NCBI GenBank assembly: GCA_964486935.1
Contig: CAZAPG010000007.1
Span: 1 to 40,000, forward strand
Length of the DNA stretch: 40,000 nucleotides
Direction: 5' to 3'
DNA from: an uncultured Caldilineaceae bacterium
GTDB taxonomy: Bacteria > Chloroflexota > Anaerolineae > 4572-78 > J111
Positions within the stretch are counted from its first letter, which is position 1. Each line of letters starts with the position of its first letter. Shown here piece by piece: positions 16,466-36,029 of the stretch. The notes under the pieces were generated by a model. That model was not told where the DNA came from. It saw nothing but the letters and a program-made list of their open reading frames with translations, and did not search any database. Both the position numbers and the translations under genes were made by a program.

Positions 16466-17635
16466 ATGACGGTTCAAATAGGCATTGATTACACCGCCGC
16501 TATCCATCAAACGGCGGGCATTGGCCGCTATGTTCGAGAACTGGTTGGCGCCCTGGCCGGGATGCAAAACAATGGCTTCGTCCCGCAATATCGGCTGTTT
16601 GTAGCCGCTGCCGGGCGCAATTTTCATCTGCCGCCGCCTGCGGCTAATTTTAGCTGGCATCCCACCCAAATTACCGAGCGCTGGCTGGCCCGGTTCTGGT
16701 ACCGCCTGCGGCTGCCGCTGCCTGTTCAAACCTGGACCGGCCCGCTAAATCTGTTTCACGCGCCAGATTTTTTTCTGCCGCCGGTGCGTCGCCAAACGCG
16801 AACCCTGGTAACGGTTCACGATCTCTCTTTTGTGCGCCTGCCAGAAACCACCATGACGGGCATGGAACGGCAGTTGAATACCTGGGCGCCGCTGTCGGTG
16901 CAGCGGGCCAACCACGTGATTGCCGTATCTGAGGCCACGCGGCAAGATTTAATTGAGTTGTACGGCACCCCCCCGGAAAAAATCAGCGTGCTGTATCATG
17001 GCGTGGGTTTGGCCTTCAGACCAATCACCGACGCCGCCAAATTGAACGCCGTCCGTAAAAAATACAATCTCAATGAGGCTCCATTTGTATTGAGCGTGGG
17101 CACCATCCAGCCCCGCAAAAATTACGGGCGACTCATTCAGGCGCTGGCCCGGCTAGACCCGCCGGTTGCGTTAGTAATTGTGGGTAGCAAAGGCTGGGCT
17201 TATGAATCGGTGTTCAACCAGATTGCCCAACTTGGCCTGGAAAAACGGGTTCATTTTCCCGGCTTTGTAGACGATACCGACCTGCCCGCGCTCTACAGCG
17301 CCGCCGCGTTGTTTGCCTACCCCTCGCTGTACGAGGGCTTTGGCCTGCCCGCCCTGGAGGCGATGGCTTGCGGTACGCCGGTGGTGGCCTCAAATCAGTC
17401 GGCCCTGCCAGAAGTGATCGGCCAGGCTGGTTTGCTGGTAGACCCGTATAGCGTCGATGAAATCGCAACGGCCTTGAACCAGATTTTGACCCATGACCGG
17501 TTACGCGCCAAATTATCAGTTGCCGGTATGGCTCAAGCCGCTAAATTTACCTGGCCCAAAATGGCAGCCGAGTTGATAAAGTTGTATCAACAACTAATTG
17601 GAAAAGGAGTCAAGGGAGTAGGCAGTAGGGGGTAA
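16466..17635 (+). CDS. Family-1 (GT4-like, GT-B fold) glycosyltransferase
   Basis: FAYPSLYEGFGLPALEAMACGTPVVAS (E-x7-E motif). Confidence 0.85.
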   Translation: MTVQIGIDYTAAIHQTAGIGRYVRELVGALAGMQNNGFVPQYRLFVAAAGRNFHLPPPAANFSWHPTQITERWLARFWYRLRLPLPVQTWTGPLNLFHAPDFFLPPVRRQTRTLVTVHDLSFVRLPETTMTGMERQLNTWAPLSVQRANHVIAVSEATRQDLIELYGTPPEKISVLYHGVGLAFRPITDAAKLNAVRKKYNLNEAPFVLSVGTIQPRKNYGRLIQALARLDPPVALVIVGSKGWAYESVFNQIAQLGLEKRVHFPGFVDDTDLPALYSAAALFAYPSLYEGFGLPALEAMACGTPVVASNQSALPEVIGQAGLLVDPYSVDEIATALNQILTHDRLRAKLSVAGMAQAAKFTWPKMAAELIKLYQQLIGKGVKGVGSRG

Positions 17636-17688
17636 GGGGAGGGATGTATATTGGTTCCTCTGCTCCTTACTCCCTACTCCATACCCCC
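17606..17688. repeat. Inverted pair of heptamer arrays forming a long imperfect hairpin
   Basis: Left arm GGAGTAG GCAGTAG GGGGTAA GGGGAGG. Right arm CTCTGCT CCTTACT CCCTACT CCATACC, which is the reverse complement of the same GTAGGGA-type unit. Spans the stop of one GT gene and the leader of the next. Confidence 0.7.
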
Positions 17689-17695
17689 GCTGTTA

Positions 17696-18838
17696 ATGCG
17701 CGTTTGCATCGACGTTTCTCCCACGGCCCAAAAACACGCCGGGCTGGGCCGCTATGCCGGCGAGATTGCCCGCGCCCTGGCTGGCGATAGCGAGATTGAT
17801 TTGTCGCTTTTTTTCAACCGCCAGGGCCAGGCCGCGCTGCCCGATTACCTCAGCCAGGTGCCTCACACAAGCCTCAACATTGGCAACAAACCGTGGCGCA
17901 TGGGGGTGCTGCTCTCGCAGTTGGCGCGCTGGCCGATGGATAAAACCTTTGGGGCCGGGGATATTTTTCACGCCACCAACCATCTGCTGGCTCATTTTCG
18001 CCGCGCCCGCACCGTCTTTACCCTGCACGACCTGATTTTTCTGCGCTACCCCCAATATCACCTGCCTTACAATCGCTGGTATCTCAGCCTGGCCATGCCC
18101 CGTTTTTTAAGGGCGGCAGATATGATTGTGACCCCTTCGGAATGCTCGCGGCAGGATGCCATCAAATTTTACAGCCTGCCGGAATCTAAAATAAAGGTGA
18201 TTTACGAAGCGGCAGCGCCCCATTTTCAGCCCGCCACCGATGCCATCGAACTGAAGCGGGTCGGGCAAAAATATAATTTGCCCGCCCGGTTTATGCTGCA
18301 CGTGGGCACTATCGAACCGCGCAAAAATCTCACGCGACTGCTCGATGCTTTCCAATCGCTACTGGTTGACCACCCTGACTTAAAACTGGTGCTGGTTGGC
18401 AAAAAGGGTTGGCTGTACGACTCGTTCTTTCAGCGGTTGCAGGCGTTGGGGTTGCAGGAATGCGTCATCTTCCCCGGCTATGTGGCTGAGGCCGATTTGC
18501 CGGCTTTTTACCACCTGGCCGAGTGTTTTGTATTTCCATCGCTATACGAAGGATTTGGTCTGGGGCCGCTGGAGGCGATGGCCTGCGGTACGCCGGTCGT
18601 CGCCAGCAATGCCGCCAGTTTACCGGAAGTGGTTGGCAACGCGGGGTTGCTGATTGACCCCGCCGACACCGCCGCGCTGGCCGCCGCGCTGCGCCGCGTG
18701 CTGGCAGACGCCCCGCTCAGGGCGGATTTAAAACAGCGGTCGATAGCGCGGGCCGGGCAATTTTCCTGGCAAAACGCGGCCGAGCAGTTGAAAGCGGTGT
18801 ACCTGTACCTGTCCCAAAACAAAAAACCGCCCGATTGA
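17696..18838 (+). CDS. Family-1 (GT4-like, GT-B fold) glycosyltransferase
   Basis: FVFPSLYEGFGLGPLEAMACGTPVVAS. Start moved to ATG 17696 (MRVCIDVS), because the TTG 17651 extension is encoded by the heptamer hairpin. Confidence 0.85.
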   Translation: MRVCIDVSPTAQKHAGLGRYAGEIARALAGDSEIDLSLFFNRQGQAALPDYLSQVPHTSLNIGNKPWRMGVLLSQLARWPMDKTFGAGDIFHATNHLLAHFRRARTVFTLHDLIFLRYPQYHLPYNRWYLSLAMPRFLRAADMIVTPSECSRQDAIKFYSLPESKIKVIYEAAAPHFQPATDAIELKRVGQKYNLPARFMLHVGTIEPRKNLTRLLDAFQSLLVDHPDLKLVLVGKKGWLYDSFFQRLQALGLQECVIFPGYVAEADLPAFYHLAECFVFPSLYEGFGLGPLEAMACGTPVVASNAASLPEVVGNAGLLIDPADTAALAAALRRVLADAPLRADLKQRSIARAGQFSWQNAAEQLKAVYLYLSQNKKPPD

Positions 18839-18849: not shown

Positions 18850-18852
18850 GAG

Positions 18853-18924
<72 letters not shown>

Positions 18925-18972: not shown

Positions 18973-20052
18973 TTATTGTATCCCATCTGCGTTTTGAGTC
19001 AAATTATCATTTTCTGCGGCATCGCTCTGTACGGCGTCGCTCTCCACCGGTGAGTAGCGGGCGTGGGCCTGTTGCAGTTCGGTGGTATCGAAGCGGGCGT
19101 AGATTTTGGTGGTGCTGATATCGCTGTGGCCCAGCAGCTCCTGAAGCTGGGCCGTTGGGATGCCGGCGATGGTGGTATCGCGGCCAAAGGCGTGCCGCCA
19201 GGCGTGGGGGCTGAAGATTTCTTCGTCGAGGCCGGCCCGGACGGCCAGGTTTTTGAATAGTTTGTAGAGGCCATCGTAGGTTAGCTTACCCTGGCGTCCT
19301 TGCCAGACGGGGTCGTTTGGGCCGGAGCAGGCCAGGGTTTGGCGGTAGGTTTTGAGCGCCCGGCGGGTGGGGGGGCGCAGGAAGATATCCCGGCGTTTGT
19401 TGCCCTTGCCAATGACGCCGGCGGCGCCGGTATCCAGGTCAAGATCGCCCCAAGTCAGGCTCAGGGCCTCGGCGGCGCGGCAGCCGGTATCTCTAAAGAA
19501 GAGCAGGAGGGCGCGCTCGCGGGGGGTTTGGGCGGCGGCCAGCATATTGTTGATGTTGTTTTTGAGGATGGCTTTGGGCAGGTTGTTTTTGGGCAGGTCC
19601 GGGGGCTGCACGCCGGCCAGGGGGTGCGCGGCCAGGCGGCCGGCATCTACCAGCCAGCGGGCAAAGCGGTTGAGGATGTGGTAATGGCCTTTGAGGGTAT
19701 AGGGGCTGAGGCCGCGCCGTTTGAGGCCGGCGTAGTAAGCCAGCCAGGTATCGGGCTGGGCGGGGTTGCGGCCAGTTTTTTGACACCAGGCGGCAAACTG
19801 GGCCAGGCGCTTGCGGTAGCCGGCCAGGGTATTGGGGCGGCGGTTTTCGTACACGTCCAGGTAATTGAGAAAGCCGGAGAGATATTCGGCCAGGGGGAGA
19901 GGTGCGGGCGGGGAGAGGCTGTTGTTGGACAGGGGGTGGCTAAGGCGGCGGCCATCGGGCAGGTTGATGGTTATGGTCCGACAATCGGAGGGCAGGCCGG
20001 CCAGGGTGATGATTAGCTGGTTGTTGCGGATATTTATGTTGAAATTAAGCAA
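18973..20052 (-). CDS. int: Tyrosine integrase
   Basis: Catalytic motifs FFRDTGCRAAEAL (Arg), HAWRHAFG (HxxR), LLGHSDISTTKIYAR (Tyr). Start reassigned to TTG 20052 (GGAGG 6 nt upstream), because ATG 20178 overlaps the start and RBS of the divergent gene. Confidence 0.85.
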   Translation of the reverse strand: MLNFNINIRNNQLIITLAGLPSDCRTITINLPDGRRLSHPLSNNSLSPPAPLPLAEYLSGFLNYLDVYENRRPNTLAGYRKRLAQFAAWCQKTGRNPAQPDTWLAYYAGLKRRGLSPYTLKGHYHILNRFARWLVDAGRLAAHPLAGVQPPDLPKNNLPKAILKNNINNMLAAAQTPRERALLLFFRDTGCRAAEALSLTWGDLDLDTGAAGVIGKGNKRRDIFLRPPTRRALKTYRQTLACSGPNDPVWQGRQGKLTYDGLYKLFKNLAVRAGLDEEIFSPHAWRHAFGRDTTIAGIPTAQLQELLGHSDISTTKIYARFDTTELQQAHARYSPVESDAVQSDAAENDNLTQNADGIQ

Positions 20053-20080
20053 TGGGGGCCTCCTTGTAACGGGTTTTTTG

Positions 20081-20092
20081 TGACATTTGTCA
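20081..20092. promoter_or_regulatory. Operator-like palindrome in the divergent int / early-gene intergenic region
   Basis: TGACA-tt-TGTCA within an AT-richer 124-nt spacer. Confidence 0.3.
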
Positions 20093-20176
20093 TTTGTGTG
20101 AAGCCGAAGTGAGGGTACAATATTAGCACGGGCGTTCAATTGGGGAAGAGTCGGGTGTATTTGAAGGAGAATTTTC

Positions 20177-20533
20177 ATGAACCAATCTCAATCTCAAAAA
20201 TTTGAGCCGGAGGACTCTTTTGAACAGTTGTTGGAACGTATCCGGCAACAACGGCATCCGGAGTATGGCTCGTTGGAATGGAACGGGCAGAGCCGGCAAG
20301 CGACGGTTAACATAAGGTTTGAAAACGAGGGGGATGATGAGGCGACGGTTCGCCGGCGGGCATTGACGTATCTGCGGGGGTTGACCCCGGAGGAGCGGGC
20401 CAATTTGAACATAGAGATTGTGTACCGCAAGAATGTGCCGGTGAGGGCTGTTATCCGGGGAAAAACCAGCAATCTGAACCCGGATAGATTAAGGGGTTTG
20501 GACCGGATGGCCAATGGGAAGCAGGGTCCATAG
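20177..20533 (+). CDS. Hypothetical prophage protein (118 aa)
   Basis: GAAGGAGA lies 7 nt upstream of ATG 20177. No family recognised. Confidence 0.6.
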   Translation: MNQSQSQKFEPEDSFEQLLERIRQQRHPEYGSLEWNGQSRQATVNIRFENEGDDEATVRRRALTYLRGLTPEERANLNIEIVYRKNVPVRAVIRGKTSNLNPDRLRGLDRMANGKQGP

Positions 20534-21376: not shown

Positions 21377-21907
21377 GTGTCCAGAAAGTTACCGACCTGG
21401 CTAACCCGGGCCGAGCGGAAAAGGTTGCTGGCCACCGAGTTGCCAACGCGAGACCGGGCAATTGTGGCTACGTTTTTGTATGCCGGCTTGCGAAGTAATG
21501 AATTGAGAATGTTAGACACGCCGGATGTGGATTTTGAGGAGATGACACTCCTGGTGCGTCATGGCAAACGCTCTAAGCAGAGATTGGTGCCATTACATCC
21601 GGACGCGGCGGCGGCGATGGAGAAGCACCTGGCCGGCCGGCGCGCCGGACCGGTGTTTATGACGCACCGCGGACGGATTAGCAACCGCCGGCTCAGGTCG
21701 CTCATCGAGCAAATTGGGCGAGAGGCCGGTTTGCAAAAAAAACTTCATCCGCACGTGTTACGGCACACATTTGCCACGTCGCTCCGCGAGGCCGGCCAGG
21801 AGTTGGATGTGATCCAGGCGTTGCTTGGCCATGAGCGCATCGAGACGACGGCGATTTATACGCACTGTAGCGTGGATCAGCTTAGGGCGGCGGTGGACCG
21901 GATTTAG
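21377..21907 (+). CDS. Short tyrosine recombinase (176 aa, essentially catalytic domain only)
   Basis: LYAGLRSNELRML (Arg), HPHVLRHTFAT (HxxR), LLGHERIETTAIYTH (Tyr). GTG start with AAGGAG 7 nt upstream. Confidence 0.8.
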   Translation: MSRKLPTWLTRAERKRLLATELPTRDRAIVATFLYAGLRSNELRMLDTPDVDFEEMTLLVRHGKRSKQRLVPLHPDAAAAMEKHLAGRRAGPVFMTHRGRISNRRLRSLIEQIGREAGLQKKLHPHVLRHTFATSLREAGQELDVIQALLGHERIETTAIYTHCSVDQLRAAVDRI

Positions 21908-28285: not shown

Positions 28286-28894
28286 ATGAAACGAAAAACA
28301 TTTACCGCGCCATTGGAGTTAAAAGCGGAAGGAGACGGGGAGCGAGGCGAGTTCAAGGCGGTCTTTGCCACGCTTAACGTGGTAGACCACCACGGCGATG
28401 TGACCATGCCCGGCGCGTTTGAGAAGCAGGAAGTTGTTGTTGAGCCGTGGAACCACGACTGGACGCTGCCGGCCGGCAAGGGCGTCATCAAAGCCGATGA
28501 TTCGGAAGCCTGGATAGAGGGGCAATTTTTTTTGGACACCAACGCGGGCCGGGAGAATTACCAGACGGTGAAAAATCTGGGGGCGCTGGCGGAGTGGTCT
28601 TACACTTTTGATATCATCGAGGCCGACCGGGGCCAACACGCGGGCGAAGAGGTGCGATTTTTGAAAAAAATGGACGTGGTTGGCGTAGGGCCGGTGACGC
28701 GCGGCGCGGGTATTGATACCCGCACGGTGGCGATTAAATCGCAGCAGGATTTAAAAAATGCGGACGACAAGGGAGGCGAGGCTGAAAGCGCCGAAACCGG
28801 CGATGACGGTAAGCCCGGCGGGATCGGGCCGCAGGTTGTTTTAGCTCAAATTGAACTTATTGAATTGGAGGCGGAGGATGCCATTAGACATTAA
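28286..28894 (+). CDS. HK97-family prohead protease
   Basis: GEFKAVFATLNVVDHHGDVTMPGAF. AAGGAG lies upstream of ATG 28286. Located between portal and capsid. Confidence 0.85.
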   Translation: MKRKTFTAPLELKAEGDGERGEFKAVFATLNVVDHHGDVTMPGAFEKQEVVVEPWNHDWTLPAGKGVIKADDSEAWIEGQFFLDTNAGRENYQTVKNLGALAEWSYTFDIIEADRGQHAGEEVRFLKKMDVVGVGPVTRGAGIDTRTVAIKSQQDLKNADDKGGEAESAETGDDGKPGGIGPQVVLAQIELIELEAEDAIRH

Positions 28895-30182
28895 CAAAAC
28901 CAAAGAAGAAATGCAGGATGCGCTGACCAAGGCGCGAGATATAGTTGATTTGACCGAGCAAGAGCAGCGCGATTTTACCGACGATGAGCGGAAATCGGTG
29001 GGCGACCTGCTCAAAACCGCGCGCGAGAAAAAGAAGCTGCTGGAGCAGGCCAAGGCGGACGATGAAATCCGCCGGGCGGTGAATGAACTCGGCGAGGGGA
29101 TTGAACTGAATGAGGCTGGACAGCAGGGAGAGGGCAAGCAACAACGGCGCAAAACGCTGGGCGAGCGGTTTACCACGGCCGACGCCTGGGTAGCCTGGCT
29201 GAAGCAGAACACCTCCGGGGGCGTTATCCCCGACAGCCGCAAGGGGATCACCTCGCCGCCGCTTGAGGTTAAGGATTTTGGCCTGTTCGGGCGCAAAGAG
29301 CTATTGACCGGCGTATCCGATGTAAGCGCCGGGGCGCTGGTAGAGAGCGACCGGACCGGCATTTATGAGCCTCTGGGCCGCTACCCGCTGACCATCCGCG
29401 ACCTGATTAGCGTGCGCCAGACCACGAGCGACACGGTGGAGTTTGTGCGCCAGACCCAGCAGGTGACCCAGGCCGCGCCGACCCCGGAGGCCAATGTGAC
29501 CACGCCGAGCGGGGCCACCGGCGAAATTAGCGGCGAGAAGCCGGAAGCGACGATGCGCTTTGAGCGGGTGACCGAGCCGGTCAAAACCATTGCGGTCTGG
29601 ATACCGGCCACCAAGCGCGCCCTGAGCGACGCGGCCCAGCTGCGCGGCCTGATTGATATGGAGCTGCGCGACGACCTGGCCGAGGAGCTGGAGGACCAGA
29701 TTTTGAACGGCGACGGTGTTGGCGAGAACTTTACCGGCCTGGCTAGCGTGGCCAACACGCTGGCGCAAGCCTTTGTAACGGATATTCCGACCACCACCCG
29801 CAAGGCGTTGACCCACCTGCTGGTCACCGGCAAGCAGATACCCACCGCCTGGATGCTCAATCCGGTAGACTGGGAAGCGGTTGACCTGTTAAAAGATGAC
29901 CAGGGGCGCTACTACTGGGGCGGGCCAATGGCTATGGGAACGCGCACCCTGTGGTCGTCTCCCGTGGCCCAGGGGTTTTTCCAGACCCAGGGCGCGGGCT
30001 GGCTGGCTAACTGGCGAAAGGCGGTGCTGTGGGATCGCGAGCAAGCGACGGTCAGCGTGACGGACAGCCACAGCGACTTCTTCATCCGCAATATGGTGGC
30101 CATCCTGGCCGAGATGCGGGCCGCCTTCGGCGTGATCCGGCCTAGCGCGTTTGTTGAAGTGGACCTAGAAGCGGGCAGTTAG
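28878..30182 (+). CDS. HK97-fold major capsid protein with an N-terminal coiled-coil delta domain
   Basis: GGAGG lies upstream of ATG 28878. Charged helical N-terminus, then VKTIAVWIPATKRALSDAAQLRGLID and ILNGDG. Confidence 0.9.
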   Translation: MPLDINKTKEEMQDALTKARDIVDLTEQEQRDFTDDERKSVGDLLKTAREKKKLLEQAKADDEIRRAVNELGEGIELNEAGQQGEGKQQRRKTLGERFTTADAWVAWLKQNTSGGVIPDSRKGITSPPLEVKDFGLFGRKELLTGVSDVSAGALVESDRTGIYEPLGRYPLTIRDLISVRQTTSDTVEFVRQTQQVTQAAPTPEANVTTPSGATGEISGEKPEATMRFERVTEPVKTIAVWIPATKRALSDAAQLRGLIDMELRDDLAEELEDQILNGDGVGENFTGLASVANTLAQAFVTDIPTTTRKALTHLLVTGKQIPTAWMLNPVDWEAVDLLKDDQGRYYWGGPMAMGTRTLWSSPVAQGFFQTQGAGWLANWRKAVLWDREQATVSVTDSHSDFFIRNMVAILAEMRAAFGVIRPSAFVEVDLEAGS

Positions 30183-30189
30183 GTTGTAG

Positions 30190-31083
30190 ATGGGCCTGGC
30201 CGTCAATGTTTTATGCCGGAATTTGAATGATGACCGCGTGATTCCGCGTTTCAGCCGGTATCTGCGGGATCATCTGGGCTGGCAATTGACGACCAGGCCG
30301 GACACAGCGGCGGATGCTTATTATCTATCCGGGTATTTTGAATGGCCGGTGATGAGAAAGGGCATGGCGGATCGGCCAGTGGCGGCTTACTTTACGCACA
30401 TCGAGGAGGAGCCGCCGGGCAACAGCAAGGCCAGGCTGTTTCACAGCGTGGCCGGGCTGGTCGATCTTCGGATTGCGACGGCGGCGATGTATGCCGGGCC
30501 GCTGGCGGAGTACGGACCGACGGCGCAGATCAACCCACCGGTGGAGCGACGCAGGTTTGCCCTCACCCCCGGCCCCTCTCCCGTTCACGGGAGAGGGGGG
30601 AAGCTGGTGGCCGGCTTCAGCGGGTACACGTATGGCAACGGGCGCAAGGGCGAAGGTATGGCCCGGGTGTTGGTGCGGGCGCAGCCGGATTTGGAATGGC
30701 GGGCCTCGGGCCGGGGCTGGCCGGCGCCGACCAGAATGTACAAATGGGCAGAGATGCCGGCGTTCTACCAATCGCTGGACATTTTGATTGTGACCGCGAC
30801 GGTGGAAGGCGTCCCTATGCCGCCGCTGGAGGCCCTGGCTTGCGGGGTGTCGCTGGTAATCCCGAGGGGGGTGGGGCTGCTGGATGAATTGCCTGAGCTG
30901 GCGGGCATCCACCGCTACCGGCGCGGCGACGCCGGGGATTGCGTCCGGGCGTTGTTTGAGGCGACGCAGACGCGCGCTCACGTGGATCGGGAGGCGCTGC
31001 GGGCCGCAACCGAGCCGTACAGCATTTTGGCCTGGTGCGAGCAGCACCGGCAGGCGTTTGAAGAAATTATCTTTTGGAATTAA
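30190..31083 (+). CDS. GT-B-fold glycosyltransferase (family-1-like)
   Basis: C-terminal Rossmann half with DILIVTATVEGVPMPPLEALACGVSLVIP (E-x7-E). Starts 8 nt after the capsid stop. Confidence 0.7.
   Translation: MGLAVNVLCRNLNDDRVIPRFSRYLRDHLGWQLTTRPDTAADAYYLSGYFEWPVMRKGMADRPVAAYFTHIEEEPPGNSKARLFHSVAGLVDLRIATAAMYAGPLAEYGPTAQINPPVERRRFALTPGPSPVHGRGGKLVAGFSGYTYGNGRKGEGMARVLVRAQPDLEWRASGRGWPAPTRMYKWAEMPAFYQSLDILIVTATVEGVPMPPLEALACGVSLVIPRGVGLLDELPELAGIHRYRRGDAGDCVRALFEATQTRAHVDREALRAATEPYSILAWCEQHRQAFEEIIFWN
30573..30598. repeat. Perfect 11-bp/4-nt-loop hairpin element inside the GT-B gene
   Basis: CCCCTCTCCCG-TTCA-CGGGAGAGGGG. Translated as PSPVHGRGG at the inter-domain linker. Confidence 0.9.
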
Positions 31084-31100
31084 AAAGGGAGGGTGGACGG

Positions 31101-31322
31101 ATGGTCCGCGCAAAATTTACGGTAACTGCGATTACAAATCATTTGTATGGTGGCACTGAAATCGAAGCGAAGCCGCAGTATGATGAAAGCATCCCTGAAG
31201 ACCAGCGTTTTCAGGAGGCCACACCCACGGGTGAGTTAAAAATGTTTGTGTCAAATCCCGCCGCTTTAGCTGAATTTGAGCTGGGCAAGGATTTTTATTT
31301 AGATTTTACGCCAGTCAAATGA
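31101..31322 (+). CDS. Small hypothetical protein (73 aa)
   Basis: GGGAGGG lies upstream of ATG 31101. MVRAKFTVTAI... Confidence 0.55.
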   Translation: MVRAKFTVTAITNHLYGGTEIEAKPQYDESIPEDQRFQEATPTGELKMFVSNPAALAEFELGKDFYLDFTPVK

Positions 31323-32062
31323 AACGAGGGATTTACTGCGTGGCTTTCGGCGAGCCGGCGCGCCGATGCGCCCGGCGGATGATGGAAACGGCGAAGGAAT
31401 GGCTGCCGGAAATCCCGATTTGCCTGGCGGGGGCCAAGCCGATTGGCCTTGAAGATGTCTTCATCGAGCAGCCGGACAGCGACGTGGGCGGGCGGCGGGC
31501 CAAGCTGCGGGCCTACGAGCTGGCCCCGGCCGAGTGGCAAGCGGTGCTCTATCTTGATGTGGACACCGAGGTTTGCGGCGATATCCGGTTTTATTTTCAG
31601 CTCATCGAGGATGGTTGGGAGTTTGTGATTGCCAAAGACCCGCATTTGATGGACACGATGCACTCGTTCCAGCGGCACAACAACCTGGCTGAATTACGAG
31701 AAACAGAAAGGGAAATCCTCACCCTGCACACCCTCCAGTTTAACGGCGGGGTGTGGGCCTTTGGCCGCAACGAGCGGGTGGCGGCGTTTTTTGAGCGGTG
31801 GCAGCGCGAGTGGGAGAAGCACGCTCAACGCGACCAGGGGGCGCTCATCCGGGCCATGTACGCCGACCCGCTGAGGGTTTACGTGCTGGGCAACGAGTGG
31901 AATACGTTTGAGAAATATTCCAAAGGCATCGAGACGGCCGGGCTGCGGCATTATCCGGGCCGGGCGCGGCGCTGGAAGGGTTTAATCCCGGGGCGGATTG
32001 ACAGCCAGATAGCCTGGCAAAGAGTCAAAGTATTTGAGCAACAAACAAAAGGCAGGCGATGA
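31319..32062 (+). CDS. GT-A-fold (GT8-like) nucleotide-sugar glycosyltransferase
   Basis: DxD motif in AVLYLDVDTEV. N-terminal RGIYCVAFGE beta-strand. ATGA overlap with the upstream gene. Confidence 0.65.
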   Translation: MKRGIYCVAFGEPARRCARRMMETAKEWLPEIPICLAGAKPIGLEDVFIEQPDSDVGGRRAKLRAYELAPAEWQAVLYLDVDTEVCGDIRFYFQLIEDGWEFVIAKDPHLMDTMHSFQRHNNLAELRETEREILTLHTLQFNGGVWAFGRNERVAAFFERWQREWEKHAQRDQGALIRAMYADPLRVYVLGNEWNTFEKYSKGIETAGLRHYPGRARRWKGLIPGRIDSQIAWQRVKVFEQQTKGRR

Positions 32063-32511
32063 AAACTCTTAACCTGGGAGCGGGCAATAAACCCCTAAAG
32101 GACGCGATCAACCACGACCGCATAAAACACCGGCCCGAGATAAAAACGGCGCACGACCTGAATGTGTTGCCCTGGCCGTGGCCGGACAGCTCTTTTGACC
32201 GGATTATTGCTCATTCCGTGTTTGAGCATCTGGATATTGACCTGGTGCAGGCGCTGGATGAGTGTTGGCGTATTTTGCGTCCGGGCGGCTCATTGCAGGT
32301 GAAAGTGCCGCACTGGCAACATGACAACGCCTACGCCGACCCCACTCATCGCTGGCGCTATAGCCTGCGCTCGTTTGACGTATTCCTGCCCAAGACGGCG
32401 CTGGGCCGGGAGCACAGCTTTTATACGGAGCGCAAATGGCAACTCTTGAAGGGGCCGCAATTGAACAAGGCAAAGTCATCGATGTTTGTAACGCTGAGGC
32501 CAATTAAATGA
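32059..32511 (+). CDS. Class I SAM-dependent methyltransferase
   Basis: Motif I LNLGAGN, FDRIIAHSVFEHL, ILRPGGSL. ATGA overlaps on both sides. Confidence 0.75.
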   Translation: MKTLNLGAGNKPLKDAINHDRIKHRPEIKTAHDLNVLPWPWPDSSFDRIIAHSVFEHLDIDLVQALDECWRILRPGGSLQVKVPHWQHDNAYADPTHRWRYSLRSFDVFLPKTALGREHSFYTERKWQLLKGPQLNKAKSSMFVTLRPIK

Positions 32512-33155
32512 GCAGAGGAATTGTGTTACTAGGCGGCAAGGATGCGGCCATTCAGGGCCGGGGCAAAAAGGCCGGGTTGCCGGTGATGGTTTCTGGCTCA
32601 TATGAAATCCCCTTTGAAAAGACCCTATTTGTCGAGCCGGGCACGCGCGTTCCCTGGGGGCTGCTGCCGGCCGCCTGGCATTTTCTGGACAAATGGGATG
32701 CGTCCGTTCCGCTGTGGCGCTACGGAACCACAGCGGCGGATGTAGGCATAGCCGAAGAGCGGGCCGCGACGCAGGCCATTGCGCGCGATTTGCGGGTGCT
32801 GCTGCACGCGGTCGAACTGTTGTTTGTACGCAAAAATGAGGACGGGGCGGCTCTGGTTAAACGCTGGAGCGAGGAGCGCGCCGGGGGCGGAGACAAGCGA
32901 TTGGCTTTTTTGCGGGCGCTATACCAGGTGAAGCCGAGGTTGTGTGTGCTGCCCACCTCCTGGCTGGCAAGTAACGTTGCGGGCAGGTTGGCAAGTAACA
33001 TCGCGAATATGAAGGTAACGGAGCATGGCCGTGGCGTGTCGAAGGGGGGGCCGCTGGTGCGGGTGGAGTTAGAGCCGGGCCGGTATGTAAAGTGTCACGC
33101 CGGCGATGAAGAGCGAGTGCTGGCGCATTTCAGGCGACAGAAGGAGGTTGGATAG
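32508..33155 (+). CDS. Diverged paralogue of the GT-A gene that lacks the DxD motif
   Basis: KTLFVEPGTRV aligns with AVLYLDVDTEV. LLFVRKNEDGAALVKRWSEE...LAFLRALYQVKPRLCVLPTSW aligns with VWAFGRNERVAAFFERWQRE...GALIRAMYADPLRVYVLGNEW at similar spacing. Confidence 0.55.
   Translation: MSRGIVLLGGKDAAIQGRGKKAGLPVMVSGSYEIPFEKTLFVEPGTRVPWGLLPAAWHFLDKWDASVPLWRYGTTAADVGIAEERAATQAIARDLRVLLHAVELLFVRKNEDGAALVKRWSEERAGGGDKRLAFLRALYQVKPRLCVLPTSWLASNVAGRLASNIANMKVTEHGRGVSKGGPLVRVELEPGRYVKCHAGDEERVLAHFRRQKEVG
33041..33098. repeat. Direct repeat copy 1 (about 55 nt), encodes GPLVRVELEPGRYVKCH
   Basis: About 80% identical to 33211..33265 by eye. Confidence 0.75.
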
Positions 33156-33601
33156 TGGCAATTTTGAGCAGTAAATCGTTTGAGTTGTCTACCCCGCAAA
33201 CGCGGGCCAGGAAGGGGCCGCTGGTACGGGTGGAAATTTCGCCGGGCCGGTATGTGAAGATGCATGAGACGGACGCTGTGGCCCGGGGGTACATCAAGGC
33301 CAGGCCGCCGGCAGGCGATAAGGTGCTCAAGCCGGCCGGGGATAAAACGGTTCAGGGGTCGGGGTTCAGGGTTCAGGGTTCGGAGATCGGGGTTCAGGGT
33401 TCGGGTGATGAGTCGCAAAACTCTGAACCAAAAGATGATTTTACGATCATTGCCGGCGTAGGGCCGGCAACGGCCAGGGCCTTGCAGGCGCGGGGGATCG
33501 TCACATTCGAGCAGCTTCGCCAGGCCGGGGCCCTGGATTATGTGTCTGCGCAAGCGATGCAGGCCATCGAACAGTGGAGAAACCCTGATGAAGCCGATTG
33601 A
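33155..33601 (+). CDS. Hypothetical protein with a C-terminal helix-hairpin-helix motif
   Basis: GTG start with AAGGAGG 7 nt upstream. DDFTIIAGVGPATARALQARGIVTFEQL. Contains the heptamer array. Confidence 0.6.
   Translation: MAILSSKSFELSTPQTRARKGPLVRVEISPGRYVKMHETDAVARGYIKARPPAGDKVLKPAGDKTVQGSGFRVQGSEIGVQGSGDESQNSEPKDDFTIIAGVGPATARALQARGIVTFEQLRQAGALDYVSAQAMQAIEQWRNPDEAD
33211..33265. repeat. Direct repeat copy 2, encodes GPLVRVEISPGRYVKMH
   Basis: See copy 1. Confidence 0.75.
33349..33404. repeat. Tandem heptanucleotide repeat GGTTCAG/GGTTCGG x8 inside a phage ORF
   Basis: GGTTCAG GGGTCGG GGTTCAG GGTTCAG GGTTCGG AGATCGG GGTTCAG GGTTCGG. Translated as VQGSGFRVQGSEIGVQGSG. Confidence 0.85.
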
Positions 33602-33899
33602 CCACCAATTTACCAATGTAACCCTCAACGCCCCGGCCGGCCAGGAAGATGAGATTTTGCCCCTGCGGGTCTGGACCGATGGGGAGCAGTGTATCTCTTG
33701 CTGGCAGATGGGGTGGCGCGAGCGGCTATCCGCGCTGGTATTTGGGCGGGTATGGCTGTCGGTTTTGAGCGGGCGCACCCAGCCACCGGTCTGGTTGATG
33801 GCGACGCGGGAAGCGTTGAAAGAAGCTCATCAAACTTCGCAGGAGAAGAAATGGCTAACTTTGCTACGGTTGAGGACATCGAGGCTTTTCTCCAGATAG
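33588..33899 (+). CDS. Hypothetical protein (103 aa)
   Basis: ATG 33588 overlaps the upstream stop. The 3' end overlaps the next gene by 49 nt, so the true end and reality of this ORF are uncertain. Confidence 0.45.
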   Translation: MKPIDHQFTNVTLNAPAGQEDEILPLRVWTDGEQCISCWQMGWRERLSALVFGRVWLSVLSGRTQPPVWLMATREALKEAHQTSQEKKWLTLLRLRTSRLFSR

Positions 33900-34462
33900 A
33901 AATCTCGACGGTGGAGCAAGTTGACTCGGCGCAGCGGGCGCTGACGGAGGTGACGGCGGCCATTCGCAATTATTGCCACCAGTTTCTGGAGAAAGTCGAG
34001 GATGAGACAATCAACCTCGACTCGACGGGTGGGGCGCGGCTGTTCTTGCCGGAGTTGCCGGTCATTGAGGTCTCCGTCGTCATCGAGGATGGTCAGGCGC
34101 TGGCGGTAGATGACGATTACAAATTGGGGCAGTACGGCATTTTGCACCGCGTGGGCCGCAAATGGGCCAGCGGCGTGCAAGTCATCGCCATCACCTACTC
34201 GCACGGCTACGAGCCGATTCCGGATGAAATCATCGCCGTGGCTACCCGGGCAGCGGCCAGGGGCTACCAGGCCGGGTTGCGGGCGGCAAACGACGACGCG
34301 GTGGTGGGGGTGCAGGCCAAATCGCTGGGTGATTTCTCGGTGAGTTATGGCAGCGAGCACGGCGGCGGCAGCGGCGAGGGCGTGATGGGAGCCTCGGCGG
34401 CAAGGATGTTGTTGATGAGCGAGAAGGATATGCTCGACAAGTATCGGATTAAGCGAGCGTAA
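33851..34462 (+). CDS. Head-tail connector (gp6-like adaptor)
   Basis: AGGAGAAG lies upstream of ATG 33851. N-terminal FATVEDIEAFLQIE...QRALTEVTAAIRNYC helix pair. Position is consistent. Confidence 0.7.
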   Translation: MANFATVEDIEAFLQIEISTVEQVDSAQRALTEVTAAIRNYCHQFLEKVEDETINLDSTGGARLFLPELPVIEVSVVIEDGQALAVDDDYKLGQYGILHRVGRKWASGVQVIAITYSHGYEPIPDEIIAVATRAAARGYQAGLRAANDDAVVGVQAKSLGDFSVSYGSEHGGGSGEGVMGASAARMLLMSEKDMLDKYRIKRA

Positions 34463-34463
34463 A

Positions 34464-34814
34464 ATGACTGTTTTTCAAAGCTTGCTCAATCATGAATTTA
34501 CCATTTCGCGGCGCAGGCGTAGCCCGGATGGGCGGGGCGGCTGGGCGATTGATTACGCAGAGATCGGGACGGCGCGGGGGCGCATCCGGCCAGCATCGAG
34601 CCGGGAGCGGGAGGCGGCCCGGCAAGAGGAACGGGAGATTACCCACGTGCTCTACGTGGCGGCGGGGACGGACATTCGCCGCGGCGACCAGGTAGACCTG
34701 GGAGATTTGTCGGTCGAGGTTCAGGCCGTCCGCGAGCCATCGCAGGCCGGGGAACACCTGGAGGTTGATTGCCGGGAACGGCAGCCGGAGGCGTCGCTGG
34801 AAGAGGGTAGTTAG
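34464..34814 (+). CDS. Head-closure / head-tail adaptor protein (HK97 gp9-like)
   Basis: GRGGWAIDYAEIGTARGRIRPASSRE...THVLYV...IRRGDQV pattern. Confidence 0.7.
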   Translation: MTVFQSLLNHEFTISRRRRSPDGRGGWAIDYAEIGTARGRIRPASSREREAARQEEREITHVLYVAAGTDIRRGDQVDLGDLSVEVQAVREPSQAGEHLEVDCRERQPEASLEEGS

Positions 34815-35621: not shown

Positions 35622-36029
35622 ATGGGAATGAGTGGCACTAATTTATTGCTGTTGGCCAACACCGGCACGGCTGAAACGCCGGTGTACGAGGCGGTTGGCA
35701 GCCAGCGAGACGCGACGATAGAGGAAAGCTCGGACACGATTGACATCTCGAACAAGAGCAGCCGGGCGCAGCGGGTTTTGCCGGGCCGGTTTTCAGGTTC
35801 GATATCGCTGGACGCGCTGTACGTGCCCAACGACGCGGCCTACCTGGCCCTGCGGAAAGCAAACAGAGATGGCGAGCTAATCCTGGTGGCGCGCGAGCTG
35901 GAGGGCGTGGTGCAGGAGATTGTGAGCGCCAAAATAGACTCGATATCCGAGGCGTTCCCGGACCAATCGGAGGCAACGATCAGCGTATCGCTGACGATTG
36001 ACGGCTTCTGGCAGGAGGTTGGCAGTTAA
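35622..36029 (+). CDS. Major tail (tube) protein, TP901-1/phi13-like
   Basis: CAGGAGG RBS. GTNLLLLANTGTAETPVYEAVGSQRDATIEESSDTIDISNKSS. Confidence 0.75.
   Translation: MGMSGTNLLLLANTGTAETPVYEAVGSQRDATIEESSDTIDISNKSSRAQRVLPGRFSGSISLDALYVPNDAAYLALRKANRDGELILVARELEGVVQEIVSAKIDSISEAFPDQSEATISVSLTIDGFWQEVGS

Follow-up and report, generated by a model that had tools for sequence, protein, structure and literature searches.

In the chlorovirus PBCV-1, virus-encoded cytoplasmic glycosyltransferases (GTs) such as A64R decorate the major capsid protein without the host secretory machinery. Among phages, there is reportedly little evidence for virion glycosylation in the broader population, and glycosylation of virions by phage-encoded enzymes has so far been demonstrated only in a few mycobacteriophages. 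In Che8, Corndog and Myrna, the C-termini of the capsid and tail-tube proteins are reported to be glycosylated (Freeman et al., 2023, Cell Host Microbe 31:1216, as described in PMC12619734 and PMC12363180), and Corndog carries an O-methyltransferase and three GTs within its structural operon, between the genes of portal and protease (PMC4351075). Here, we investigated a cassette of GT and methyltransferase genes (positions 30190 to 33601, plus strand) lying between the major capsid and head-tail adaptor genes of a prophage. It is contained in a stretch of 40,000 nucleotides (called the window) from an uncultured Caldilineaceae bacterium (assembly GCA_964486935.1, contig CAZAPG010000007.1, positions 1 to 40,000). 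The function that we favor, with moderate confidence and on the basis of sequence comparisons and predicted structures, is late, cytoplasmic glycosylation of virion proteins by a phage-encoded module. The module would be of the same kind as in the mycobacteriophages; it is made of unrelated enzymes, and all sampled phages of an environmental lineage tied to a different bacterial phylum have it.

After the integrase gene, the prophage runs through a short early region and the genes for terminase, portal, S78 protease and capsid to the cassette, and after the adaptor it continues with head-closure, neck and terminator proteins, tail tube, chaperones and tape measure. By this gene order, the integrated prophage is of siphovirus type and the cassette belongs to its late operon. 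Its upstream boundary is the gene of the major capsid protein (28851..30182, plus strand; HK97 type with delta domain, Phage_capsid 8e-41, phrog_10 6e-55), a candidate acceptor which ends in VDLEAGS. The downstream boundary is the adaptor gene (33851..34462, plus strand; phrog_442 5e-33, with homologues of 205 amino acids (aa) in the related loci L002 and L004), which probably starts at 33851 and not at 33689. An earlier note on the window had described six translationally coupled genes at this place and had predicted their late expression together with virion proteins. All six open reading frames (ORFs), designated A to F, were recovered on the plus strand with the same coordinates, as were the quoted sequence motifs, the ATGA overlaps at 31319, 32059 and 32508 and the overlap at 33155, which reads TAGTG in the sequence. 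Seven nucleotides separate the capsid stop codon from the start of A. Promoter-like and terminator-like sites were no commoner in the cassette region than in shuffled sequence, and the predicted placement of the embedded cassette in the late operon was thus upheld. The accompanying premise that connector genes directly follow the capsid gene in HK97-like modules is only roughly true, as related actinophages have a small gene there. The cassette genes lie about 10 kb from the integrase, inside the head operon. No transmembrane segment was found in any cassette protein, the maximum hydropathy over 19 residues being at most 1.6 with its peak within a Rossmann strand.

The most conserved cassette gene is C (31319..32062, plus strand; 247 aa), whose product is predicted to be a retaining-type GT-A glycosyltransferase similar to the GT8 and GT6 families. 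Its match to Pfam Glyco_transf_8 (17.1 bits) stayed below the gathering threshold of 24.3, the NCBIfam scan gave no match for C and only sub-threshold matches across the cassette, and sequence-profile searches of C and E against the PDB returned nothing significant, so that structure prediction was needed. The AlphaFold (AF2) model was confident (pLDDT 92.3, pTM 0.90), and Foldseek searches against the PDB matched it at E values around 1e-9, probability 1.0 and TM-scores of 0.55-0.63 to the GT8 domain of LARGE1, GT6 ABO transferases, BoGT6a, glycogenin, LgtC, UGGT and GlyE. With these retaining GT-A enzymes (LgtC, glycogenin, LARGE1 and BoGT6a of CAZy families GT8 and GT6, and UGGT and GlyE) protein C shares the fold, the DxD motif and the overall size, whereas sequence identity is only 11-15%; glycogenin, UGGT and GlyE act on protein acceptors. 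The DxD residues of C (D80 and D82 in YLDVDTE) were unchanged in 30 homologues. A fold search against BFVD gave only generic GT-A matches, to GTs of giant viruses and uncultured phages. The earlier assignment of C as a GT-A enzyme with a DxD motif therefore agrees with the structure model.

Protein A (30190..31083, plus strand; 297 aa) is a predicted GT-B-type, GT4-like glycosyltransferase. It scored above the cut-off of Pfam Glycos_transf_1 (28.6 versus 26.4 bits) with its C-terminal half only; a profile built from 19 homologues matched the GT1-family protein 5i45 in the PDB (3.8e-6) as well as C-terminal domains of glycogen synthases, and the E-x7-E motif (E206, E214) was unchanged in all 19. 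The GT-B assignment is in this way borne out by family, profile and motif. N-terminal residues 1-160 gave no family match in Pfam or in the PDB profile search. In relatives of the prophage, A and C form one protein of about 570 aa in 30 ORFs, with a linker of 30-70 residues. The position of this linker is occupied in the window by gene B (31101..31322, plus strand), which encodes a 73-aa protein matching the C-terminal part of phrog_6978 and starts with the ATG at 31101 behind its own strong Shine-Dalgarno (SD) sequence GGGAGG. The GC content of B is 44.6% overall and 43% at third codon positions (GC3), compared to about 60% and 75% in the neighboring genes. No homologue of B was found in the related loci, while scattered homologues occur in unrelated phages of Rhizobium, Bradyrhizobium, Synechococcus, E. 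coli and Elizabethkingia. Because of its low GC and GC3, the lack of homologues in related loci and the fusion of A and C in the relatives, B is best described as a recent foreign insertion which splits an A-C unit and is no conserved member of the cassette.

Gene D (32059..32511, plus strand) encodes a small class I S-adenosylmethionine (SAM)-dependent methyltransferase of 150 aa. The assignment, already made in the earlier note, is backed by a Pfam Methyltransf_11 match above cut-off (6.7e-10; 39.9 versus 21.2 bits), in which only the distal part of the profile aligns, D being short, by phrog_6636 and by the motifs LNLGAGN (residues 4-10) and LRPGG. DNA-methylase families in Pfam and NCBIfam gave no match to D. 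The gene is found in only some of the relatives, and its product is probably a glycan O-methyltransferase. Gene E (32508..33155, plus strand) encodes a degenerate paralogue of C followed by a C-terminal beta-hairpin/helix module (GPLVRVELEPGRYVKCH...). Comparison of C with E by hhalign gave 98% probability at an E value of 1.4e-13, in accordance with the view that E is a DxD-less paralogue. Two forms exist in the alignment of E homologues: in the clade of the window, E has lost the DxD motif and about 45 residues, whereas a divergent second clade retains YVDADT and NSGMIFW. The E protein of the window is thus probably non-catalytic.

Gene F (33155..33601, plus strand) starts with the same kind of hairpin/helix module (KGPLVRVEISPGRYVKMHETDAVARGYI), followed by a low-complexity Lys/Pro/Ala linker of the 'xNK/xDK' type and a C-terminal helix-hairpin-helix (HhH) domain. 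As to the HhH domain, the Pfam match to DNA_pol_lambd_f (2.2e-6) is sub-threshold (27.8 versus 29.8 bits), and the assignment is supported by the relatives and by the model of P0260, a natural E-F fusion protein from a related contig. This model shows a confident reduced GT-A-like core with weak matches to UGGT (probability 0.89) and LgtC, and an HhH domain, likewise confident, which weakly matches DNA polymerase beta in structure. The beta-hairpin and helix module that ends E is seen in it as well, and a second time where F begins. The fold search with the P0260 model found no structural relative of the hairpin/helix module. As a consensus, about 35 residues of the form PLVRVExxPGRYVK...DA.ARG are seen at the C-terminus of E (33050-33155) and at the N-terminus of F (33155-33300). 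The small genes which follow the capsid gene in actinophages without GTs and with homologous capsid proteins (L101 5753-6004, L106 2755-3009 and L107 2812-3015) were compared with F, and Redi gp7, Faith5x5 gp7 and Polka gp8 aligned with it in register at an hhalign E value of 4.4e-4 and a probability of 33%. Corndog gp42, a small protein comparable in size and composition and encoded at the same position, was detected in virions (PMC4351075). The similarity to the actinophage genes is weak, and F is possibly an ancestral small gene of the head module that gained an HhH domain, rather than cargo, with E possibly carrying a copy of its N-terminal module. Of the six-gene cassette proposed in the earlier note, the coupled genes are real; it is not one unit, in view of the foreign gene B and the possible origin of F as a head gene. 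A seventh ORF had been missed (G, see below).

Related loci were collected with a capsid-protein search, which yielded 80 viral contigs at 52-81% identity, many of them about 40 kb long, and metagenomic loci as well as loci from metagenome-assembled genomes (MAGs) were added from the contexts of C homologues. The 58 loci in which 2.5 kb or more of sequence was available behind the capsid gene were regarded as informative. In this survey of relatives, a step suggested in the earlier note, GT genes followed the capsid gene in all 58 informative loci, and not one GT-less member of the lineage was present among them. In the 42 loci in which the adaptor was mapped, the gap between capsid and adaptor measured 2.3-8.3 kb and contained the GT genes. 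The lineage falls into two clades. In clade 1 (48 loci), A is present, C is at least 52% identical and E is degenerate; the median identities to the window are 75% for the terminase, 71% for C, 62% for the portal and 57% for the capsid protein, and this conservation of C is easier to reconcile with a core function than with an accessory moron. In clade 2 (15 loci), A is missing, C is about 32% identical and E is intact with its DxD motif. The C-like GT-A of clade 2 is mostly fused to a Methyltransf_24 domain (about 397 aa in total) and in a few loci merely preceded by it.

The conserved core of the cassette consists of the A-C pair, usually as one fused protein, and E. Between the core genes, a variable set was found which comprises several distinct GT2s, Methyltransf_24/O-methyltransferase-like and other methyltransferases, sulfotransferases (Sulfotransfer_3 and Sulfotransfer_4), a radical SAM/SPASM protein and a UDP-glucose/GDP-mannose dehydrogenase. 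Such enzymes typically tailor glycans or supply their precursors. In the longest intervals (L005 12988-15309, L056 12156-13595, L077 6796-10658 and L092 12069-14740), large non-enzymatic proteins are encoded as well: one with a beta-helix, one of 682 aa with HAHTAE-type repeats, and others of 340-570 aa without a Pfam match. They may be head fibers or decoration proteins. Besides the A-C fusions, a D-E fusion (P0299) and natural E-F fusions exist among the relatives, and these fusions indicate functional linkage of the cassette genes. In 50,697 genomes of isolated phages, DNA and protein searches, including tblastn for A and C, gave no match to A, C or the tube protein. The capsid gene alone matched isolated phages, weakly, in cluster N mycobacteriophages and in Arthrobacter and Gordonia phages. 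As judged by these searches, no cultured relative among the 50,697 genomes carries the cassette.

The solubility of the proteins, the coupling to head genes, the fixation in the lineage and the gene fusions together fit late cytoplasmic modification of something that every particle needs, and they fit a lysogenic-conversion moron less well. In the mechanism that we propose, A and C would use host nucleotide sugars in late infection and build a short O-linked glycan, which would be attached to exposed Ser or Thr residues of the structural proteins during assembly, with the capsid subunit as prime candidate acceptor and the tail tube protein as the second. D would methylate a sugar hydroxyl, and E, having lost its DxD motif, would serve as a docking or scaffolding subunit and not as an enzyme. 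The glycan would become more diverse through the differences in tailoring genes from phage to phage, which is what one would expect of a surface coat.

PBCV-1 resembles this arrangement in having its own soluble GT-A enzymes and methyltransferase activity, and it differs in being a eukaryotic giant virus with atypical, N-linked glycans. The closest described systems, Che8 gp108-110 and Corndog gp35-38, likewise consist of phage-encoded soluble GTs and a methyltransferase (an O-methyltransferase in Corndog), and the C-termini of capsid and tube, which are the acceptors there, have GS or DS as their last two residues, as in the cassette lineage. In Corndog the genes are co-located with virion structural genes as in the window, which is not the case in Che8; the cassette occupies the capsid/adaptor junction, the Corndog genes the portal/protease junction and the Che8 genes the right genome end. 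The enzymes of Che8 and Corndog are 47-56% identical to each other, unlike those of the cassette: comparison of A, C, D and E with Che8 gp108-110 and Corndog gp35-38 gave hhalign probabilities below 1%, hmmsearch scores of at most 2.2 bits and no BLASTP match, and homology between the two enzyme sets was rejected on these scores. Further differences are the host phylum (Chloroflexota versus Actinomycetota) and, in the cassette lineage, the lineage-wide fixation of the core, the usual fusion of A and C, the pseudo-GT and the sulfotransferases and radical SAM proteins of the relatives. The expectation that gene combination and host background would differ from those of the mycobacteriophages was thus confirmed, with non-homologous enzymes and a host assigned to the Anaerolineae. 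The cassette is accordingly predicted to work like the mycobacteriophage system with an independent enzyme set outside that family.

A feature shared with the mycobacteriophage acceptors is found at the C-termini of three structural proteins. Besides the capsid protein, these are the head-closure or head-tail joining protein (34464..34814, plus strand; its L004 homologue matches Phage_HCP), which ends in SLEEGS, and the tail tube protein (35622..36029, plus strand; homologues match Phage_tail_2), which ends in WQEVGS; they are a candidate acceptor and the candidate second acceptor, respectively. The Gly-Ser tails are encoded at 30165-30182 (capsid), 34797-34814 (head-closure) and 36012-36029 (tube). 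Among distinct sequences of the lineage, Gly-Ser ends were present in 80% of the capsid (n = 80), 74% of the head-closure (n = 34) and 79% of the tube proteins (n = 29), and Ser or Thr was the last residue in 96%, 85% and 100% of the same sets. Swaps from Ser to Thr occur at the last position. In 12 other conserved protein families of the lineage, a Gly-Ser end was never found. For the Gly-Ser end of the capsid protein, each of the four Gly codons and codons of either Ser family are used, which points to selection at the amino-acid level. In Che8, the capsid protein ends in KTGS and the tube protein in SDGS; the respective ends in Corndog are LVGS and KGDS. The capsid proteins of Faith5x5, Polka and phiL7 have other endings. 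In clade 2, which includes L042-L054 and L060, the capsid and head-closure proteins have a wider range of termini (AAT, ELS, VTA, VNT) than those of the GT-B-bearing clade.

Several observations weigh against virion glycosylation, and some of them concern these tails. The homologous capsid protein of Redi, in which no GT is annotated, ends in SGS, and in the GT-less HK97-like coliphage HK022 the capsid protein gp5 ends in SSGS and gp6 in EEGS (L105 2362-2379 and 2722-2739). In the lineage itself, the head-closure tail is encoded by GAG GAG GGN TCR TGA TG and the tube tail by GAG GTG GGY AGC TAA TG. Both hold an SD sequence (GGAGG or GAGGTG) 6-9 nucleotides upstream of the start codon of the following, overlapping gene; the Ser codon of the tube is AGC in 21 of 23 sequences. 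Given the embedded SD sequence and the AGC bias, translational coupling explains much of the motif in the head-closure and tube genes. The Gly-Ser tail was considered as a dedicated glycosylation tag and downgraded, because it is enriched in the lineage yet shared by the GT-less HK022 and Redi, with an SD sequence embedded in its head-closure and tube versions; it is suggestive, being compatible with an acceptor site and not diagnostic of one. More generally, both the glycan and its acceptor are predicted here from the genes, the enzymes of the cassette are unrelated to those proven to glycosylate virions, and the window covers only about half of the prophage. As the survey contains no GT-less member, cassette presence could not be correlated with virion features. 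Finally, contact with DNA is hinted at by the HhH domain of F, a protein that some relatives have fused to E.

This last point leads to the proposal that phage DNA is glycosylated and methylated by the cassette at about the time when it is packaged, as a means of evading host restriction, which we regard as very unlikely. HhH domains usually contact the DNA backbone, T-even and other phages have their DNA decorated by GT-B and GT-A enzymes (bioRxiv 10.1101/2023.12.21.572611), and the cassette genes adjoin those for packaging and the head. The T-even DNA glucosyltransferases and 5-hydroxymethylcytosine (5hmC) glycan systems, however, need a hydroxymethyl-pyrimidine pathway, and no hydroxymethylase, TET-like enzyme or cytosine methylase was found at window positions 18.9-40 kb or in the inspected parts of the relatives, which make up about half of each phage genome. 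D matches class I methyltransferases acting on small molecules or proteins and not the DNA methylase families, and the sulfotransferases and UDP-sugar dehydrogenase among the tailoring enzymes of the relatives point to carbohydrate rather than DNA chemistry. The N-terminal module of F, moreover, weakly resembles the post-capsid gene of actinophages that have no GTs, so that the HhH protein may lie outside the enzymatic system.

It is improbable, though less so, that the enzymes modify an envelope glycan of the host or its precursors (cell-wall polysaccharide, S-layer glycan or exopolysaccharide) and leave the virion unmodified, which would serve receptor masking, a superinfection block or keeping progeny off debris. 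Phage GTs often act in seroconversion (PMC12619734), and polysaccharide loci typically contain GT4, GT2, GT8, sulfotransferases and UDP-sugar dehydrogenase. The phage is temperate, its integrase lying beside tRNA-Cys, and the variable content of the cassette resembles diversity of the O-antigen type. The seroconversion enzymes of the GtrABC type are also encoded by temperate phages, but they are membrane-bound and encoded near the attachment site, whereas the cassette proteins are soluble, without any membrane segment, and their genes lie within the late head operon, away from the attachment site and immunity region and without a promoter or terminator of their own. Neither a flippase nor a polymerase gene was seen in any cassette. 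Conversion morons are usually patchy in distribution, while the core of the cassette was found in every one of the 58 relatives and C is better conserved than the capsid protein. Quite improbable as well is a different target, either another phage protein (a decoration, fiber or non-virion protein) or a free oligosaccharide or small molecule, with the capsid and tube proteins not modified. The large proteins of the long cassettes, with their beta-helix, HAHTAE-type repeats or lack of Pfam matches, would offer such a target, yet the window and most relatives lack them while the GT core is universal, and no genes for a small-molecule biosynthetic scaffold were found.

If virions do carry the product of the cassette, a glycan coat would be a general strategy of phages that evolved independently, and its roles could go beyond immune evasion to particle stability, protease resistance, sticking to or avoidance of a matrix, or an interplay with receptors. 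The variable tailoring genes would then mark a new arena of the arms race between phage and host or phage and environment, and the A-C fusions would provide compact soluble enzymes for protein O-glycosylation in engineering. A more far-reaching version, which we put forward tentatively and consider doubtful, is that a large and uncultivated siphovirus lineage with genomes of about 40 kb, apparently of Chloroflexota, is obligatorily coated with a glycan made by the phage. Such phages would combine a GT-B/GT-A fusion and a pseudo-GT, arisen independently of the mycobacteriophage enzymes and the latter with a docking module copied from a small head protein, with the terminal Ser/Thr of capsid and tube subunits as acceptor and a hypervariable set of tailoring enzymes (methylation, sulfation and radical SAM chemistry) that makes the coat diverse. 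If true, virion glycosylation would be ancient, ecologically widespread and unrelated to antibody evasion.

Window positions 1-18.8 kb are filled with bacterial genes, which include the C-terminus of a tRNA ligase, a Ser/Thr kinase, a histidine kinase, a bifunctional homocysteine methyltransferase/MTHFR and two GT4 glycosyltransferases. The prophage is integrated beside a tRNA-Cys gene (18852-18924, minus strand), which is adjoined by the gene of a tyrosine integrase of 401 aa (18973-20178, minus strand). A second, short ORF with a Phage_integrase domain (176 aa, 21377-21907) lies 1.2 kb deeper in the prophage, and the distance from integrase to terminase is only about 4.3 kb. The two host GT4 genes (16466-18838; Glycos_transf_1 1e-42 and 9e-41) adjoin the attachment-site tRNA and show no relation to protein A beyond the family level. 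Among the top matches of the host methyltransferase/MTHFR (about 59-78% identity), the named homologues all belong to Anaerolineae or Chloroflexota, and on the basis of this protein the host is assigned to the Anaerolineae.

Between F and the adaptor, a supposed gap is filled by ORF G (33588-33899, plus strand; 103 aa), which starts before F ends, stops within the first part of the adaptor gene and has no Pfam or NCBIfam match. In L002 and L022, homologues with 75% identity occupy the same position, and in L036, L016 and L021 homologues lie upstream of the terminase; by this distribution, G behaves like a mobile small gene. Homologues of protein C in GTDB genomes are mostly located on contigs of about 41 kb which were binned into MAGs of many phyla, the commonest labels being Anaerolineae, Anaerolineales, Dehalococcoidia and Chloroflexota. 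Cassette contigs of this length, probably whole phage genomes (L087-L093 and L097), also carry the labels Pseudomonadota, Gammaproteobacteria, Thermoprotei archaeon, Zixibacteria, Eisenbacteria and Sideroxydans, which suggests mis-binned phage contigs and not a broad host range.

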